Part shown: positions 40,928 through 49,117 of the stretch, piece by piece
Position numbering within the stretch: the first letter of the stretch is position 1
How the letters are laid out: the number at the start of each line of letters is the position of its first letter
Source of the DNA: Gammaproteobacteria bacterium
Lineage (GTDB): Bacteria; Pseudomonadota; Gammaproteobacteria; Natronospirales; REEB76
NCBI GenBank assembly: GCA_049591615.1
Contig: JBAWFD010000101.1
Span: forward strand, 22,882 to 86,881
Reading direction: 5' to 3'
Length of the DNA: 64,000 bases
The notes under the pieces: generated by a model
Databases searched by the model: none
The model's input: the letters and a program-made list of their open reading frames with translations, nothing else
Told to the model about the DNA's origin: nothing
Position numbers and translations under genes: made by a program

Positions 40928-42736
40928 TCAGGTATGCGCCGGCTCAGGTTTGCCTGCCAGACTGTCCTGGATCCATTGATCCACCACTTTCTTCAGGACT
41001 GTGAGTGGCAGGTTGCCATGCTCCAGCACTGCTGCATGAAAAGCCTTGATGTCGAACTTGGCTCCCAGAGTTTTTTCCGCCTGTTTGCGCAGATTCTGGA
41101 TCTCGATCTCGCCGATCATGTAGGACAAGGCTTGTCCGGGCCAGGCGATGTAGCGGTCCACCTCGGTGTTGATGTTCTGCACACTCAGGGCGGTGTTGTC
41201 CTCGAAATACTTGACGGCCTGCGCGCGCGTCCAGCCCTCGGAATGTATACCAGTGTCTACCACCAGCCGCACCGCGCGCCACATCTGGTAATCCAAGTAG
41301 CCAAATTTCGAATATGGATTGTCGTAAAGCCCCATCTCGTTGCATAGGGTTTCGGTATACAACGCCCAGCCTTCCCCATAGGAGCTGTAATAATCGAAAC
41401 GTCGGAAGTCCGGGAGGTTTTTCAATCCCATGGCGATCGGAATCTGCAACTGATGGCCCGGTCGGCCTTCGTGGCAGGTGAGCACCTGGATATCGTATTT
41501 CGGGCGGCTTTCGGGTTTATATAAGTTCACCGCCATATAGCCCGCTACGCTGAAATCGCCGGCGGGCGGCACCGAGTAGGCCGGATAAGTATCCGGCGCG
41601 AGCGATGCTGGGATGGGATAGACGCCGTAAGGCACACGCGGCAGCAGCCATATGGGGAAATATTGCACCAGGTGCGGATCCACGGTCTTGGCCGCAGCAC
41701 GATAGGCTTCCAGGAGATCCTGCGGATTCTTGTAATAGAAGCGCGGATCGGTGCGCAGGTAATGCAGGAAGTCCTGGTAACTGCCCTTGAATCCCACCTG
41801 CTCGAATATCTTTTCCATCTCCGCATGAATCTGCGCCACCTTCTGCAATCCCAACTGGTGGATCTGCTCCGGCGTCATGTCGGTAGTGGTATAGCGCCGC
41901 ACCTGAAAGGCGTAATACGCCTTGCCATCAGGCAGCGCCTCAGCAGCAATGCTGGTACGGCAATGAGGCAGATAATCCGTGTCGTAGTATTTCTGGAGTT
42001 TTTGGTAGGCGGGAACTACGACATCCATGATGGCTGCCTTAGCGGCAGCACGCATCCGATCCTGTTCAGCTGCGGGGATGATCTCGGGCATCTTGTTAAA
42101 AGGCGCATAGAAAGCGCTGTCTACCGGGTTGGCCACGACGTTGGCGGCAATCTGGTGCGGGATGCGCTGCATCACTACCTTGGGCTCCGTCATGCCGCGT
42201 TTGACGCCTTCCTTTAGCAGGTCAATGGTTTGATCCATATAGACATTGATGGTCTGCAGGCGCTTGATGTAGTTCTCGTAATCCTTGGGGTTCTCGAAAC
42301 GCAAAGTTTGGGTCAGGGTGCTCAGGGTCTGGATGCCATCCAGCTGGTTCATGGGCATCAGGTAATCACCGAAACTGTAGCCCTCGGCCTGATCCTGGTA
42401 ACGGTATTTAAACAGGTCGTAAGTGACTTGGTCTTCACCGATCAGCTGGCTGCGATCAATGGCTGCCAGATCTTTGAGCGTTTGCAGATTCTCATCGTGT
42501 TCCCGGGCGATGGCCGCGAGGCTCACATTCGGCCACTCACCATCGTATTCATGAAAACCATCAGCTGAAGCCTCGAGCGGATGTTCACGCATCTCCCGTT
42601 GCCAGGCAGAATCGACGAGTGAGTGTAATGCAACGACCGCTTGATTGTCAGCAGACTGGCTATCGGCTGCCCAGCTTGGAATTGTTATAAAAAAAGAGAT
42701 CGTCAGCACAATTATAACAGGTAGGCATTTTTTCAT
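40928..42736 (-). CDS. DUF885-family secreted protein (metallopeptidase-like)
   Basis: Signal peptide MKKCLPVIIVLTISFFITIPSWA. HEGRPGHQLQ (HExxPGHxxQ, characteristic of DUF885). Confidence 0.7.
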   Translation of the reverse strand: MKKCLPVIIVLTISFFITIPSWAADSQSADNQAVVALHSLVDSAWQREMREHPLEASADGFHEYDGEWPNVSLAAIAREHDENLQTLKDLAAIDRSQLIGEDQVTYDLFKYRYQDQAEGYSFGDYLMPMNQLDGIQTLSTLTQTLRFENPKDYENYIKRLQTINVYMDQTIDLLKEGVKRGMTEPKVVMQRIPHQIAANVVANPVDSAFYAPFNKMPEIIPAAEQDRMRAAAKAAIMDVVVPAYQKLQKYYDTDYLPHCRTSIAAEALPDGKAYYAFQVRRYTTTDMTPEQIHQLGLQKVAQIHAEMEKIFEQVGFKGSYQDFLHYLRTDPRFYYKNPQDLLEAYRAAAKTVDPHLVQYFPIWLLPRVPYGVYPIPASLAPDTYPAYSVPPAGDFSVAGYMAVNLYKPESRPKYDIQVLTCHEGRPGHQLQIPIAMGLKNLPDFRRFDYYSSYGEGWALYTETLCNEMGLYDNPYSKFGYLDYQMWRAVRLVVDTGIHSEGWTRAQAVKYFEDNTALSVQNINTEVDRYIAWPGQALSYMIGEIEIQNLRKQAEKTLGAKFDIKAFHAAVLEHGNLPLTVLKKVVDQWIQDSLAGKPEPAHT

Positions 42737-42877
42737 TACATAATCTCCACGATACTGGTTACAGGTTTGATTTCTAACTCCATGTGTTTATTTAGGGCTG
42801 TGAGCTATTCTTATTTACTATCGGAATGAATTTCAAACTGGACAAGAATGCTATGCCCTCTTGAAATTCTGTTCCTG

Positions 42878-43294
42878 TTATAAAACCGGACTTTGAGCGT
42901 TCTGAATACTCCAGTTGTATGGCACGGTGTGGATCATCCGGATGGATGCAGGTGATACCAAATATTTCAATAATAAGCGTCTCGCCTGGGGCGACAGGAG
43001 AACCAGCAAAAAGTAAACCAGGTCTTTAGCTGGAGCAGCAAACGCGGAAAAGAATAACACTCCGATTGATGCCAGGCATACGATACAAACAAAGAAAATG
43101 GTTAACCCTAGACTCATCCAGCGCGCCCAGGGCTTGCCTGCGGCTAGTCCCAAGGCTCCCGTCACGAACAGTGCGCATAACAACCAGCCCAAAAGATCAA
43201 ATTTCGTATGCTGATGTGGATGCCAGGTGAAAACTACGGCTACATAGCCGGCCAGTGAAAGACTGGATATCACCACGAGTGTCCGACGATTCAC
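42878..43294 (-). CDS. Hypothetical small integral membrane protein
   Basis: Four hydrophobic segments, GTG start, lower GC (~48% in a sampled line). No motif recognised. Confidence 0.4.
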   Translation of the reverse strand: MNRRTLVVISSLSLAGYVAVVFTWHPHQHTKFDLLGWLLCALFVTGALGLAAGKPWARWMSLGLTIFFVCIVCLASIGVLFFSAFAAPAKDLVYFLLVLLSPQARRLLLKYLVSPASIRMIHTVPYNWSIQNAQSPVL

Positions 43295-43321
43295 CGGTTT
43301 AATTAGGTCGTTGTTGGGAAT

Positions 43322-44613: not shown

Positions 44614-45051
44614 TTAAGAATTAGGGACGAGCTTCAATATGGCCTCTCTGTCAGTACGGGAACTGGCTTGCCTCGCGGCTTCGTCATGTAGCAGCCAGCA
44701 GTATTCCTTATGTTCCTCGGGATCAAGTTGGACAGCGATGACTGACGGCAAGCATAATGAAAATATGTGCTCGATATTTTCCATCACGTCTGGCGCGAAC
44801 CTGGCGCGCCAGGCAGGATGGATGGGATAGCGATTAACTATGCCGCTGTCGGTAAGGCCTTCATCAACGTCTAATCCAGTTTCTTCACGCACTTCCCGAA
44901 TAGCCGCCTGCCGAGGTGTTTCACCTTGCTCCAGGCTGCCGGTAACTGACTGCCAGAAATCAAGCGGGTCACAGCGACGCAAGCGCAATACTTCTCCATG
45001 ATCGGTGAAAATGACGACCAATACGGAATCGGGGCGCTTGAATTCACTCAT
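44614..45051 (-). CDS. nudB: NUDIX hydrolase, NudB-like (dihydroneopterin triphosphate pyrophosphatase)
   Basis: WQSVTGSLEQGETPRQAAIREVREETGL Nudix box. Normally adjacent to aspS. Confidence 0.75.
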   Translation of the reverse strand: MSEFKRPDSVLVVIFTDHGEVLRLRRCDPLDFWQSVTGSLEQGETPRQAAIREVREETGLDVDEGLTDSGIVNRYPIHPAWRARFAPDVMENIEHIFSLCLPSVIAVQLDPEEHKEYCWLLHDEAARQASSRTDREAILKLVPNS

Positions 45052-45305
45052 AAGCGATTATTAATATGCGCGAATCTTGCCTATTTAATTATAGGCTGAA
45101 TAACCGCATCTGTTGGAAGCAACCTTTTCCCAATCCTTGAATTTTATTCTCAACAGTTTGTTTCCGACAATTGGTATCCGTTAAGCTGACCGCTTGCCAT
45201 GGTAAATAATCCGAAAGTGCAACCGCCATACGAATCAACACAACAAAAAGTTAGGAAACTTGGGGTTATACTCAGTCGTTGCGAGATGCATTCAGGAATA
45301 TTTAA

Positions 45306-46640
45306 ATGAAAGCCATATTTGCGATCATTAGATCACATTCTTTTCTGGTGATCGTATTCCTGTTGCTGGCGCATGCAGTCAATGCCACTCAGGCACATAA
45401 GCACATAATCCTTATGACATACTGGTCTAACGATACAACAAAATATGCGTCTTATCCCATCCCTGGCAGTTTAAATCAAAGTGGAACCCTTCAGCACAAT
45501 GAAGCGCTATTGCAACAATTGAATGCAGTTAATGTCCTTGGCTATGCCTTTTTGCAGGTCGACGGGTCCGGTCATGTATATTTTAGTCGTCCATCTGTTG
45601 ACCTGTCTGAGAGCGACATCACAGGCTTTTGCGTTAAACAGCCTTCAAGTTGTCCACACGTGGTTAACGCATGGTCAGGCAACTTTTCCGCCTTTGCAAG
45701 GCTAGACAACAGGGATCATTCGCTACAAAAGGTAATCTCCATAGGAGGCGCTGGGAGTCAGAAAACCTTTGAAAATGCGATTCACAATCCAGAAACATTC
45801 ATTCAGTCTGCAACCTATCTTATTCATGCATACCACTTGAATGGGATTGATCTCGACTTCGAACCAGATGCGTTTTTTTATTTGCATGAAGGTCAATCAT
45901 ATGCGCAGCTAGTCCTGGACTTAAGGAGAGCGCTTGGCAAGGAAGCATTCATCAGTATTGAGGTGCCCGGCGACTGGGAAACGTTGCGCAGTGTCAATTG
46001 TCCAACCAATAATTCATGTAGTAACAACCTCGGCATTATTGCCGATAATGCTTATGTCTCGCTCATGGGCTTTGACTTTCATGGTCCATATTACCCAGGG
46101 ATGGTTACCAGCAATGACTCGAACCTTTATTGTGATCCAGATGAACCCTTACTTTCAAATTATTATCATGCCAGTGTCAATCAAGCGATCGGATATCTGA
46201 CTTTTAACAAAGTACCAGCCAAAAAGATTATTTTGGGTTTCCCGGCTTATTTCAGGGCCTATGGTGGTGTCGAGGTTGCGCCAGGCAGTTATGGTCTGTA
46301 TCAGCCATTCGATAAATCAAAAACACCAGCTTATGATCTAGGCACGAAGGGAAAAGGCTCTTATCGGGTTGCGAGAAGACTTTTGAAATCGGGATTCACA
46401 CAACATTACCTCCTAGTTAACGACAAGATCAGTGCCGTCTACGCGTATAACGAATCGACTCAGCAATGGATAAGTTACGATGATCAGGTGTCGATTACCT
46501 CTAAAGCTAAGTACGTACTTTCCAGGCGTCTTGCGGGGATGATGATGTGGGAAATTGGGGAAGACATGCCAATTAACAGCCCCACGTCACTTTTACGGAG
46601 CGCACATACCGCTTTATTCAATACGAAGACGGGGCAATAA
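45306..46640 (+). CDS. Secreted glycoside hydrolase family 18 (chitinase-like) protein
   Basis: Signal peptide ...LLLAHAVNA. SIGGAGS and LNGIDLDFE (the DxxDxDxE catalytic motif is retained). GC is low (~45-47% in sampled lines). Confidence 0.75.
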   Translation: MKAIFAIIRSHSFLVIVFLLLAHAVNATQAHKHIILMTYWSNDTTKYASYPIPGSLNQSGTLQHNEALLQQLNAVNVLGYAFLQVDGSGHVYFSRPSVDLSESDITGFCVKQPSSCPHVVNAWSGNFSAFARLDNRDHSLQKVISIGGAGSQKTFENAIHNPETFIQSATYLIHAYHLNGIDLDFEPDAFFYLHEGQSYAQLVLDLRRALGKEAFISIEVPGDWETLRSVNCPTNNSCSNNLGIIADNAYVSLMGFDFHGPYYPGMVTSNDSNLYCDPDEPLLSNYYHASVNQAIGYLTFNKVPAKKIILGFPAYFRAYGGVEVAPGSYGLYQPFDKSKTPAYDLGTKGKGSYRVARRLLKSGFTQHYLLVNDKISAVYAYNESTQQWISYDDQVSITSKAKYVLSRRLAGMMMWEIGEDMPINSPTSLLRSAHTALFNTKTGQ

Positions 46641-46690
46641 TTCTACGTCTTCTATGCCTTTAAACACCTGTGCATCGCTGTTAATTTATT

Positions 46691-47245
46691 TTATGCTAAC
46701 TCCTGCCAATCAAGGATATTGTCTAACGGATGATTCATCACCTTATGCTCAAGAAGCGATTCGCTGATGGCATCTTTTTTGGTTCCAGTCCCGCGCACTG
46801 CTTCGAGGTATACGTTCAGGCTTTTAGTACTGCGTAACACAGTCGCGATCTTCAGATATTCAGGCAATTCAACAGAGCCTTTGAGTTTCAGGATAGCCAC
46901 GCCTTTATTGGAGCTCTTCGCAAAGCCGATCGCATAGGGAATCCACCAGGATTTGCAAGTCTCTTTGCTCACCAAACTCAAGATATGGGTCGAAAGCAGT
47001 ATCCCACGTTCTATGCATTTGGTGACGCGCGCTGGCTCTTTCAGCAATGCATCCATCTCGATGTCGGCATCGGTCTCATCGAAATAAACATCCAGGCCTC
47101 CATGCTCCATGATGTAATTTGCGATCGCATGCACCACGTTCCTGTCGATCTGGAAATGGGATATGTAGATGCAGGATCCGGCATTACCTGCTTTGGCGGC
47201 GAGTGCATGTTGCTCTGTCAGTAATGCTCTATTGCGTCCAGCCAC
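46691..47245 (-). CDS. TIR-like domain protein (orphan)
   Basis: CIYISHFQIDRNVVHAIANYIMEHGGLDVYFDE...ILSLVSKETCKSWWIPYAIGFA follows the bacterial TIR / DUF1863 pattern (FISH..D...L...G..V..D ... S.W...E.G). GTG start preceded by a TAAGGAG SD. Low GC. Confidence 0.45.
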   Translation of the reverse strand: MAGRNRALLTEQHALAAKAGNAGSCIYISHFQIDRNVVHAIANYIMEHGGLDVYFDETDADIEMDALLKEPARVTKCIERGILLSTHILSLVSKETCKSWWIPYAIGFAKSSNKGVAILKLKGSVELPEYLKIATVLRSTKSLNVYLEAVRGTGTKKDAISESLLEHKVMNHPLDNILDWQELA

Positions 47246-47266
47246 ACATCGCTCCTTATGAAATGT

Positions 47267-49051
47267 TTACGGTTCTTTGTGTGCCGGCGGCAAATGCAAG
47301 CAGATATGCAATTCCTTGAGCTCCGCATCATTGACATCCGCGGGCGCGTCAGTGAGCGGATCCCAGGCCGTCTGGGTCTTGGGGAAGGCGATGACCTCGC
47401 GGATGTTGGGGGCGCCGGCCATGTGCATCACCAGCCGGTCCATCCCCAGGGCGATGCCGCCGTGGGGTGGACAACCGGACTTGAGTGCGTCCAGCAGGAA
47501 GCCAAACTTCCTACGCGCCTGCTCATCGCTGATGCCGAGCATGCGGAACACGGCCGACTGCATGTCCTGGTTGTGGATGCGGATGGAGCCGCCACCCAGC
47601 TCGGTGCCGTTCAGCACCAGGTCGTAGGCGCGCGAGCGGATGCCACCCGGGTCCTTCTCCATCGCGGAGACATCATCCACTTTGGGTGAAGTGAACGGAT
47701 GGTGCAGGAAGATCCAGCGCTTGTCCTTCTCGTCCCACTCGAACATGGGGAATTCCACTACCCACAGCGGCGCCCACTCGCCTTGCATCAGGCCTCGGTC
47801 CTGGCCGAGCTTCAGACGCAACGCACCCATCGAGTCGTTCACGATGCGGGCCTTATCGGCACCGAAAAAGATCACGTCGTTGTTGGCAGCGCCGCAGCGC
47901 TTGAGGATGCCTTGCAGGGCGGCATCCGACAGGAACTTGATGATGGGCGACTGCAGACCCTCGCGCCCCTTAGCGAGGTCGTTCACCTTTATATAGGCGA
48001 GACCTTTGGCGCCATAGCGCGCCACAAACGCGGTGCAGTCGTCAATCTCGCTGCGCGGCAGTTCGCCGCCCTTGGGCAGGCGCAGGGCGGCGACCCGGCC
48101 ATCTTTGGCGTTCGCCGGTCCGGCAAACACCTTGAACTCACAATCCTTCACCAGGTCGGCCACGTCCACCAGTTCCAGCCGGATGCGCAGGTCCGGCTTG
48201 TCGGAGCCGTAACGGCGCATGGCTTCGTCGTACGGCATGCGCAAAAACGGATCGGTCAGCTCGACGCCCAGCACTTCCTTGAAGGTGTGCCGGATCATGC
48301 CCTCGGTGATGTCCATGACCTGGCTCTCGTTCAGGAACGAGGTCTCGATGTCGAGCTGGGTAAATTCCGGCTGGCGGTCGGCACGCAGGTCCTCATCGCG
48401 GAAACAGCGCGCGATCTGGTAGTAGCGGTCGAAACCCGACATCATCAGCAACTGTTTGAACAGCTGCGGCGACTGCGGCAGTGCGAAGAACTTGCCGGGA
48501 TGGGTACGGCTCGGCACCAGATAATCGCGCGCGCCTTCCGGCGTGGGCTTGGTGAGGATCGGGGTCTCCACATCGATGAAACCCTGCTGGTCCAGATGGC
48601 GGCGCAGTGCGTTGATGATGCGGTGGCGCAGCCGCAGTCGCTGCTGCATCACCGGCCGGCGCAGATCGATATAACGATACTGGAGCCGGCGCTCTTCGTT
48701 CACATCGTCTTCATCGAGCATGAAGGGCGGGGTTTCGGCACGATTGAGCAATTGCATCTCCTGCGCCAGCACTTCCACCTTACCGCTGGGCAGGTTCGGG
48801 TTTTCCGTGCCCTGGGGGCGGTGGCGGACCTTGCCTTTCACGCTCACCACGAATTCGCTGCGCAGGCGCTCCGCATCGACGAACAGCTCCGCACGCTCCG
48901 GATCGAAAACCACTTGCACCAGGCCTTCCCGGTCGCGCAGATCGACGAAGATCACGCCACCGTGGTCGCGACGCCGGTGTACCCAGCCAGCGATGCGGAT
49001 CTCCTTTTCCAGTAGGGTTTCGTTGACCTGGCCGCAATAGTGAGTACGCAT
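47267..49051 (-). CDS. aspS: Aspartate--tRNA ligase
   Basis: MRTHYCGQV...[19 protein letters not shown]...[18 protein letters not shown]...GGIALGMDR. Start at the second ATG (49051). Confidence 0.95.
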
Positions 49052-49117
49052 GAAAAATTCCTGAGATGACGTTGTCATAAAATCGGGAGAAACTGGGGTC
49101 GAGGCAGGCGCGCGATG

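Follow-up and report, generated by a model that had tools for sequence, protein, structure and literature searches.

In Thoeris anti-phage systems the gene for ThsB, a TIR protein that acts as sensor and signal synthase, is accompanied by an adjacent gene for an effector (SIR2-SLOG, Macro, SLOG, caspase-like, and others) by which the TIR product is sensed. Thoeris loci in nature often bear multiple divergent ThsB genes, and the exchange E85Q in ThsB abolishes phage defence (10.1101/2021.01.06.425286). A corresponding exchange, E208A, leaves the stand-alone TIR protein AbTir completely inactive (10.1101/2022.05.07.491051). A further layout with multiple TIR proteins and a SLOG effector is named "type III Thoeris" in a passage of a preprint (bioRxiv 10.64898/2025.12.03.692087, citing van den Berg et al. 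2024). Here we describe a ThsB-like TIR gene that, within the sequence available, stands apart from any such system, between the core genes aspS and nudB, where it is accompanied by a GH18 chitinase-like gene. Both lie at positions 45052-47266 of a 64-kb stretch of a contig from a metagenome-assembled genome (MAG), in the following called the window (contig JBAWFD010000101.1, positions 22,882 to 86,881). Our reading, to which we give a probability of roughly 70%, is that this is a nested islet, into which first the orphan TIR gene and later the GH18 gene entered at a recurrently used site between aspS and nudB of an uncultured gammaproteobacterial clade, and that the TIR protein has lost its catalytic glutamate and nevertheless retained a role. 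The features of the locus are as follows:

47267-49078, minus strand: aspS (aspartyl-tRNA synthetase), the upstream anchor gene, with the Pfam domains tRNA-synt_2 (7.6e-125), GAD and an anticodon-binding OB fold
47246-47266, minus strand: aspS-TIR spacer of 21 nt, read from the sequence
46691-47245, minus strand: orphan ThsB-like TIR-domain gene, 184 aa, 48.5% GC, assigned by PADLOC, PDB profile and AlphaFold2/Foldseek
46931-46933, minus strand: TIR codon 105, which reads GCG (Ala) where the family has its catalytic Glu, from codon comparison and structure-profile alignments
46641-46690, no strand: convergent spacer of 50 bp from GH18 stop to TIR stop, read from the sequence
45306-46640, plus strand: GH18 chitinase-like gene, 444 aa, 44.5% GC (PF00704, 5e-42)
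45052-45305, no strand: divergent nudB/GH18 intergenic region of 254 bp, AT-rich, 39.0% GC
44614-45051, minus strand: nudB (dihydroneopterin triphosphate diphosphatase), the downstream anchor gene (NCBIfam NF006961, Pfam NUDIX)

GTDB species representatives were scanned with AspS, which yielded 80 loci that were typed by tblastn with the window proteins. About a dozen related genomes have nudB next to aspS, with the common order Zn-ribbon, DUF502, aspS, nudB, nadA, DUF885 and an aspS-nudB gap of 30-170 bp. This adjacency is found in the nearest relatives (L017, L018, L020-24, L026, L028, L029, and L066; AspS 73-93%) as well as in more distant Gammaproteobacteria (L072, L076, L086, and L088). 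The TIR gene stands directly 3' of aspS only in the window, L001-3, L006-8/L100, L012, and L101, the AspS proteins of which are 93-96% identical. These five TIR-bearing lineages form one clade on the neighbour-joining tree of aspS (bootstrap 188/200). Their sister group (L029, L017, and L013) is devoid of the TIR gene: in L029 and L017 aspS adjoins nudB, and in L013 an IS5-like transposase lies in the gap. Since the TIR lineages are one clade and the sisters are TIR-less, a single TIR insertion in the common ancestor is the parsimonious assumption. The slot behind the TIR gene is filled differently from lineage to lineage. In L101 the order is aspS-TIR-nudB and nothing else, with an AT-rich TIR-nudB spacer of 86 bp, L001-3 carry a 640-aa multicopper oxidase there, L006-8 an ammonium transporter (Amt) gene together with kdp genes, and L012 kdp genes. 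The GH18 gene occupies this slot in the window and is absent from 90 other aspS loci. At the DNA level, similarity between the window and L001 ends at 46683, 8 bp beyond the TIR stop, and restarts at 45054, 3 bp before the nudB start. The islet thus goes back to two insertion events and not to one, with the TIR gene first and the GH18 gene later.

The original prediction, an annotation of the window made from its letters, had proposed one 2.2-kb insertion, and this part of it is contradicted by the comparison, as the TIR gene is common to five lineages and GH18 is found in the window only. Its other statements on the arrangement proved right, namely the convergent GH18/TIR-like pair between nudB and aspS, which the open reading frame (ORF) coordinates confirm, the AT-rich leader of 254 bp, and the conserved aspS-nudB adjacency, which is ancestral in the clade and beyond. 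That both genes are foreign to the aspS-nudB arrangement and low in GC is confirmed as well. The two genes are also not found clade-wide with native composition, as the TIR gene is confined to the sub-clade and has 46-50% GC in every bearing lineage, and the GH18 gene is shared with none of them. A single horizontally acquired block, in which GH18 and TIR would have split aspS and nudB together, is therefore highly improbable. The two genes are indeed adjacent, both low in GC, and jointly the lowest-GC stretch of the window. However, the TIR gene occurs without GH18 at the same site in L001-3, L006-8, L012, and L101, in the last of these alone between aspS and nudB, and the nearest GH18 relatives lie elsewhere without a TIR gene. 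The homology with L001 ends at the TIR stop codon.

The stretch 45052-47266 has a GC content of 44.6%, compared with a mean of 56.8% for the window, and is the minimum among all sliding 2.2-kb stretches (z = -3.6; runner-up 50.7%), so that the low-GC stretch splitting nudB and aspS in the original prediction was well recognized. The predicted values of 45-47% against about 65% in aspS came near and were slightly off: the GC content at all and at third codon positions (GC3) is 44.5% and 44.9% in GH18, 48.5% and 55.7% in TIR, 62.0% and 80.5% in aspS, and 52.1% and 53.4% in nudB. It might be argued that the low GC is native to weakly expressed genes and has nothing to do with acquisition, since nudB itself has a GC3 of only 53% and, in all hosts, the GC content of the TIR family genes is lower than that of the surrounding DNA by 3-9 points. 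Yet both genes are missing from the locus in the sister lineages, and GH18 is present in 0/90 other aspS loci, which leaves next to no probability for a native origin.

Fillers of the aspS-nudB gap are not restricted to the TIR-bearing lineages. The TIR-less loci contain the IS5-like transposase of L013 (9985-11064; DUF772 1.6e-23, DDE_Tnp_1 2.2e-5), a gene for a 147-aa lipoprotein in L015 (9969-10412) with 43% GC in a locus of 57%, a gene for a 276-aa protein in L016 (7130-7960), and one for a 132-aa membrane protein in L014 (7366-7764). Genes have been inserted between aspS and nudB repeatedly in this clade. Unlike GH18, the multicopper oxidase gene of L001 (10812-12734) is native-like in composition, with 62% GC and a GC3 of 77%, and therefore the slot also takes up genes from hosts of similar GC or from intragenomic translocations. 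A side observation concerns the labels of the genomes. L013, L023, and L027 carry the titles "Natronospirales bacterium" or "Bacillota bacterium", yet their AspS proteins are 76-91% identical to those of this gammaproteobacterial clade and the synteny is the same, so the MAGs with such titles are probably mislabelled or contaminated bins. Furthermore, the MAG REEB234 contains two different aspS contigs (L025 and L029), which suggests a mixed bin.

The TIR gene starts with GTG, 21 nt past the aspS stop, and an AAGGAG Shine-Dalgarno sequence (47252-47257, minus strand) precedes the GTG by 6 nt. That translation begins at this GTG follows from the N-terminus MAGRNRAL, which is conserved in the family. 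As the 21-nt spacer leaves no room for a terminator, the TIR gene is probably co-transcribed with aspS. The assignment of its product to the TIR proteins rests on several lines. Pfam TIR_2 matches with E = 2.3e-5 and 25.3 bits, which is under the gathering score of 28, and no NCBIfam model for the protein was found. Eight PADLOC ThsB models match, the best being PDLC00436 (4.5e-10), and a profile built from 22 TIR family members retrieved from the PDB BcThsB (8btn, 3.9e-10), followed by the B. cereus TIR, BtTir/AbTir-type, and TLR TIR domains, so that the sequence similarity is of the ThsB type. The AlphaFold2 model (predicted local distance difference test, pLDDT, 82; predicted template modelling score, pTM, 0.82) has alternating strands and helices, and its top Foldseek matches in the PDB are the B. 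cereus TIR 8fz9, BcThsB 8btn, and EcThsB 8wcf, with a probability of 1.0 and template modelling (TM) scores of 0.44-0.69, which places the protein in the TIR-superfamily fold. The family is characterized by the motif SWW[VI]PYE[IL]GY and by the invariant termini MAGRNRAL and NHPLDNILDW, and the window protein keeps 23/23 family-invariant residues. The termini are conserved throughout, orphans included, with N5 and R6 being invariant. Conservation of the termini to this degree suggests an interaction or processing site.

Family members that share 35-50% identity with the window protein are encoded in multi-TIR operons, which consist of two to four small TIR genes and a gene for a TIR-SLOG (LD_cluster2) protein of 640-680 aa. 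The cluster of L092, from Psychrobium, comprises genes for a TIR protein (278 aa), the family TIR, a ThsB_TIR protein (193 aa), and a 159-aa protein. That of L096 comprises the family TIR, a TIR protein (177 aa), TIR-SLOG (642 aa, matching LD_cluster2 at 3.9e-66), and ThsB_TIR (207 aa), with AbiH adjoining. L099 resembles L096 and has a TIR-SLOG protein of 677 aa, and a multi-TIR cluster of the same type is present on an Aureispira plasmid (NZ_CP133672). A metagenome scan gave 80 TIR-family loci, of which 31 were non-redundant, had at least 2.5 kb on both sides, and were counted as informative. TIR-SLOG lies within 6 kb in 25 of these 31 and another TIR gene is present in 28, and the sole partnerless locus among them is the aspS-linked L100. 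A conserved 159-aa protein is encoded directly downstream of the family TIR or of a ThsB-like neighbour (L092/L099 8160-8639, L113, L127, and L139). It has no Pfam or PADLOC match and is the sole visible partner in some multi-TIR loci.

At the window locus this operon is not present, and the neighbours of the TIR gene are aspS, GH18, and nudB in place of an effector gene. Neither the window with its 64 kb nor L001, L006, L012, and L004, in which 7-10 kb of flank were covered, gave a tblastn match to TIR-SLOG or the other cluster partners. Within the available 64 kb the window TIR is an orphan. A further orphan, 66% identical and with the glutamate retained, lies between HlyIII and DUF4124 genes in L004/L005 (10001-10558). 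L004 and L016 belong to the same MAG (whole-genome shotgun prefix JBOIBD01), the aspS-nudB gap of which holds a different filler. As the L004 orphan is located away from aspS, the orphan subfamily occupies at least two loci in the clade. Among viral contigs two distant TIR-family matches only (32-37%) were found, and matches so few and distant give no sign of phage carriage.

The second peculiarity of the window TIR is found at the position of the catalytic glutamate, which in NAD+-cleaving TIR domains is part of a WxxxE motif in helix alpha-C. The family W...E aligns with SLWMPWE of BcThsB and WTEYE of the Tir-type TIR 7uxr, and corresponds to W204/E208 in AbTir. The window protein reads W101-I-P-Y-A105 in place of WxxxE, with GCG as codon 105, and hence does not have the catalytic Glu. 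The same Ala codon is present in L001-3, which are three independent assemblies. Codon 105 is CAG (Gln) in L012, and Gln is also found in P0004; Glu is encoded in L006/L100 and L101 (GAG) and in L004 (GAA). Taken together, the orphan lineages have A, A, Q, Q, E, E, E at this position, and the Glu is kept in every clustered copy with a readable motif. Glu is the ancestral state, for a single step leads from it to either Ala or Gln, and two steps are needed between the latter. The tree requires three changes at position 105, either three losses or one loss, a reversal, and a further loss, and P0004 adds another. The Glu was lost in 4/7 orphan lineages and in 0/28 clustered loci (Fisher test, p = 7e-4), a comparison that ignores phylogeny and has only seven orphan lineages to draw on. 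The original prediction was correct in calling the protein TIR-like, and missed both its character as a ThsB-type orphan of a multi-TIR/SLOG operon and the loss of the catalytic Glu. It is most likely that the window TIR can neither cleave NAD+ nor make a cyclic ADP-ribose (cADPR)-type signal. Stand-alone bacterial TIR NADases such as AbTir do exist, and the remaining pocket residues including W101 are conserved. One could hence think of a protein that still acts alone as NADase or toxin and has recruited another residue for catalysis. However, exchange of the Glu for Ala or Gln eliminates the activity of AbTir and ThsB, and there is no compensating acidic residue beside position 105 (Y104, I106), so that such an enzyme appears very unlikely.

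Loss of the catalytic residue did not go along with decay of the gene. Pairwise Nei-Gojobori comparison of the aspS-linked copies gave ratios of nonsynonymous to synonymous substitution rates (dN/dS) of 0.045-0.076 at dS of about 0.8-1.8, and in the same genomes the values are 0.056-0.070 for aspS, 0.084 for nadA, and 0.098 for nudB. For the pair of window and L001, both without the Glu, dN/dS is 0.045. As dN/dS is as low as that of aspS and all invariant residues are kept, the TIR gene is not decaying and is constrained as a protein. The orphan status, the missing catalytic residue, and the three states of codon 105 among close relatives would fit a decaying remnant of a broken defence system, a pseudogene in waiting. 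This is disfavoured by the low dN/dS, by the ORFs, which are intact and of full length in at least six lineages, and by the retention of the other invariant residues, the Shine-Dalgarno sequence, and the conserved start, and we consider decay to have little probability. The selection data rather indicate that the TIR protein retains a non-catalytic role. It may bind a ligand or a partner, perhaps in concert with TIR proteins from other loci.

A related explanation would be that the protein is a working trans-acting sensor or adaptor of a Thoeris-like system located elsewhere, with Ala105 marking the non-catalytic subunit of a hetero-oligomer. The strong purifying selection and the retention of the family-invariant termini and of all 23 invariant residues are in line with this. 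The same is true for the usual setting of the family, in which several TIR paralogues act side by side, and for the frequent occurrence of multiple divergent ThsB genes in Thoeris loci (10.1101/2021.01.06.425286). On the other hand, no partner is encoded in the 64 kb or within 7-10 kb in L001, L006, L012, and L004, and the clustered copies never lose the Glu, so that a family member is normally catalytic. The explanation also overlaps with our preferred reading, and taken on its own we regard it as unlikely.

The GH18 gene has a history of its own. Its product contains the domain PF00704 at aa 62-420 with 145 bits (cut-off 29.6; E = 5e-42) and is thus a member of the GH18 family. Its best solved relatives in the PDB are bacterial chitinases (5gzu at 1.5e-28), and it scores below all NCBIfam equivalog cut-offs, in the case of ChiD by far (47.7 bits vs 750). 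The catalytic motif, which the original prediction had called intact, is present as NGIDLDFE at aa 179-186 (nt 45840-45863) with D182, D184, and E186, and YHLNGIDLDFE aligns with YNLDGIDLDWE of solved chitinases. All 100 GH18 homologues retrieved contain DxDxE. In 26 of them, the window protein included, Asn takes the place of the first Asp of DxxDxDxE. The original prediction had called the protein secreted, and by inspection its N-terminus resembles a Sec signal peptide, with a K/R-containing part followed by the hydrophobic stretch FLVIVFLLLA and then AVNA-T.

Homologues with 58-66% identity come mainly from Steroidobacteraceae MAGs, where their GC is host-like (57.9% in L181), and in the more distant P0080 (L181/182) the gene likewise stands alone among unrelated neighbours without a chitin-utilisation cluster. 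The three nearest homologues, 77-78% identical, are all metagenomic, and the two examined in context lie in unrelated places. In L009/L010 the GH18 gene adjoins TniQ, TniB/AAA_22, and 804-aa genes of a Tn7/Tn5053-like module (L009 727-7527), and in L011 it lies between a Mrr-type nuclease gene and a PIN_4 gene. Both in L009 and in L011 it has about 45% GC, as in the window. The similarity of the window to L009 and L011 comprises the ORF with 10-47 bp upstream and 12 bp downstream (45259/45296-46652). The relative in L009 stands just downstream of the transposon module, in the manner of transposon cargo. The 804-aa protein of that module, which has no Pfam match, is a tentative transposase. With a dN/dS of 0.14-0.17, the GH18 gene is, as far as sequence comparison can tell, a functional, mobile, stand-alone cargo gene with a catalytically competent-looking product. 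A functional link between GH18 and TIR was rejected, since the pair never co-occurs elsewhere, and an origin of the cargo as integron cassettes was rejected for want of an integrase and of a conserved junction and on account of the opposite orientation. The plasmid collection contained only remote relatives of the two genes (at best 34% for TIR and about 29% for GH18).

The borders of the islet give no hint of how the genes arrived. A tRNA scan of 38-54 kb found none, a search for direct and inverted repeats at the borders returned only 10-12-mers at chance level, and no integrase or transposase was found among the neighbouring ORFs. The stretch 45052-47266 therefore has none of the features of a genomic island (integrase or transposase, tRNA or att target, flanking direct repeats). 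This agrees with the original prediction, which had stated these absences and had called the mechanism of acquisition not evident; neither recombinase nor repeats nor a conserved junction sequence are present. A hairpin of 7 bp (46625-46652) spans the GH18 stop with a stability not above that of shuffled sequence (z = 0.19), and a terminator and promoter scan of the islet gave short matches at chance level only. The leader between nudB and GH18 has no similarity to relatives except for the final ~47 bp ahead of the GH18 ATG. Within this AT-rich leader a promoter-like site is located at 45170-45141 on the minus strand. nudB, which would be severed from aspS by the opposing GH18 gene, could now be driven by this candidate promoter. 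The identity of nudB is supported by the NCBIfam equivalog NF006961 (171.5 bits vs a cut-off of 103) as well as by Pfam NUDIX.

The whole minus-strand order at the locus is Zn-ribbon, DUF502, aspS, TIR-like, nudB, nadA, a 138-aa membrane protein, and DUF885, interrupted between TIR and nudB by the plus-strand gene GH18. The predicted 138-aa membrane protein (ORF 42878-43294, minus strand, in the stretch 42737-43321) lies between nadA and DUF885. Its gene has 49% GC, and the flank 42550-43000 has 41-42%. No NCBIfam match and only a weak, YbjO-like Pfam match were found. In L001-3 the nadA-DUF885 gap is about 50 bp, and the protein is present in 0/91 loci (tblastn). Its appearance is that of another small insertion specific to this lineage, 2 kb away from the islet.

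From these data the following history can be proposed for the nested islet. A lone ThsB-type TIR gene would have entered the site immediately 3' of aspS in the sub-clade ancestor and would have been inherited since, its source presumably being the family that normally resides in multi-TIR operons with a TIR-SLOG protein. Later, and in the window lineage only, a GH18 gene of the secreted type would have inserted in opposite orientation between TIR and nudB, and would thereby have cut nudB off from aspS transcription. For the insertions themselves, our default guess would be illegitimate recombination, after which the genes would have spread by homologous recombination between the conserved flanking regions. 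Several points weigh against this reading. Neither of the two steps left a visible mechanism of insertion (no repeats, recombinase, or conserved junction), and L101, which has the TIR gene alone in the gap, is a metagenomic contig of 2.6 kb. Since only 64 kb of a MAG contig are available, a TIR-SLOG or ThsA-like partner could sit elsewhere in the genome. The orphan of L004 is at another locus, and the history of the TIR gene may thus include a relocation or a second acquisition. The states on the tree (A, A, Q, E, E) also fit a loss of the Glu plus a reversal, the loss of activity is deduced from homology, and the limits of the Fisher test given above belong here as well.

As such, the islet is ordinary, because small foreign genes between core genes are common. 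The locus nevertheless provides a natural series at one site, from the empty spacer over TIR alone to TIR with varied cargo, and an operon spacer that serves as recurrent insertion point without a visible recombinase is informative for the origin of recombinase-less islets. The TIR gene itself represents a natural experiment, in which a Thoeris-type synthase was split from its effector and bears the E-to-A and E-to-Q substitutions otherwise made in the laboratory, under strong purifying selection. An orphan ThsB-type TIR that is naturally Glu-less and still strongly conserved is modestly novel. A more far-reaching idea, which we put forward tentatively and hold to be clearly less probable than its opposite, is that the orphaned protein was domesticated behind an aminoacyl-tRNA synthetase gene into a non-enzymatic protein, with repeated loss of the Glu and with selection on the other invariant residues as strong as on aspS. 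If this is true, it might act as a binder or sponge of NAD+ or ADP-ribose (ADPR) signals or as a scaffold, and would be the bacterial counterpart of the animal TIR adaptors that are not catalytic. A non-catalytic function, if true, would widen the known repertoire of bacterial TIR proteins.

Among the described systems, the window TIR is closest to ThsB (BcThsB 8btn and EcThsB 8wcf), with which it shares the TIR/flavodoxin-like fold, the single domain of about 180 aa, and the WxxxE of its family, and its best PADLOC, PDB-sequence, and fold matches are all ThsB proteins. It differs from ThsB of Thoeris in that it lacks an adjacent ThsA-type effector, in the replacement of the catalytic Glu by Ala, and in its position in a housekeeping operon behind aspS instead of a defence island. 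The family operons share the layout of multiple TIR proteins and SLOG with "type III Thoeris", an equivalence by description only, as far as the cited preprint passage goes, whereas the window gene is one lone component of such a set. With the stand-alone TIR NADases AbTir, BtTir, and TcpB/BtpA, which are often located in variable regions, the window TIR has the stand-alone gene and an alignable WxxxE region in common, but these require the Glu and carry coiled-coil N-terminal parts, and the window protein is without both. The GH18 protein shares the TIM barrel (aa 62-420) with bacterial subfamily-A-type chitinases (the Paenibacillus ChiW domains 5gzu; Serratia ChiB/ChiD), and its DxDxE core aligns with their "DGIDLDWE". 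In contrast to known chitinases, with which it is only about 25-30% identical, it has no carbohydrate-binding module, stays below the NCBIfam cut-offs, and has Asn for the first motif Asp and Phe for the Trp before the Glu. Finally, the locus as a whole resembles genomic islets and integration hotspots in that different cargo of deviant GC is found at one intergenic site. It differs from the usual hotspots by having no integrase, tRNA, att-like repeat, or conserved junction, and its hotspot is a spacer of 30-170 bp, probably inside a former single operon.

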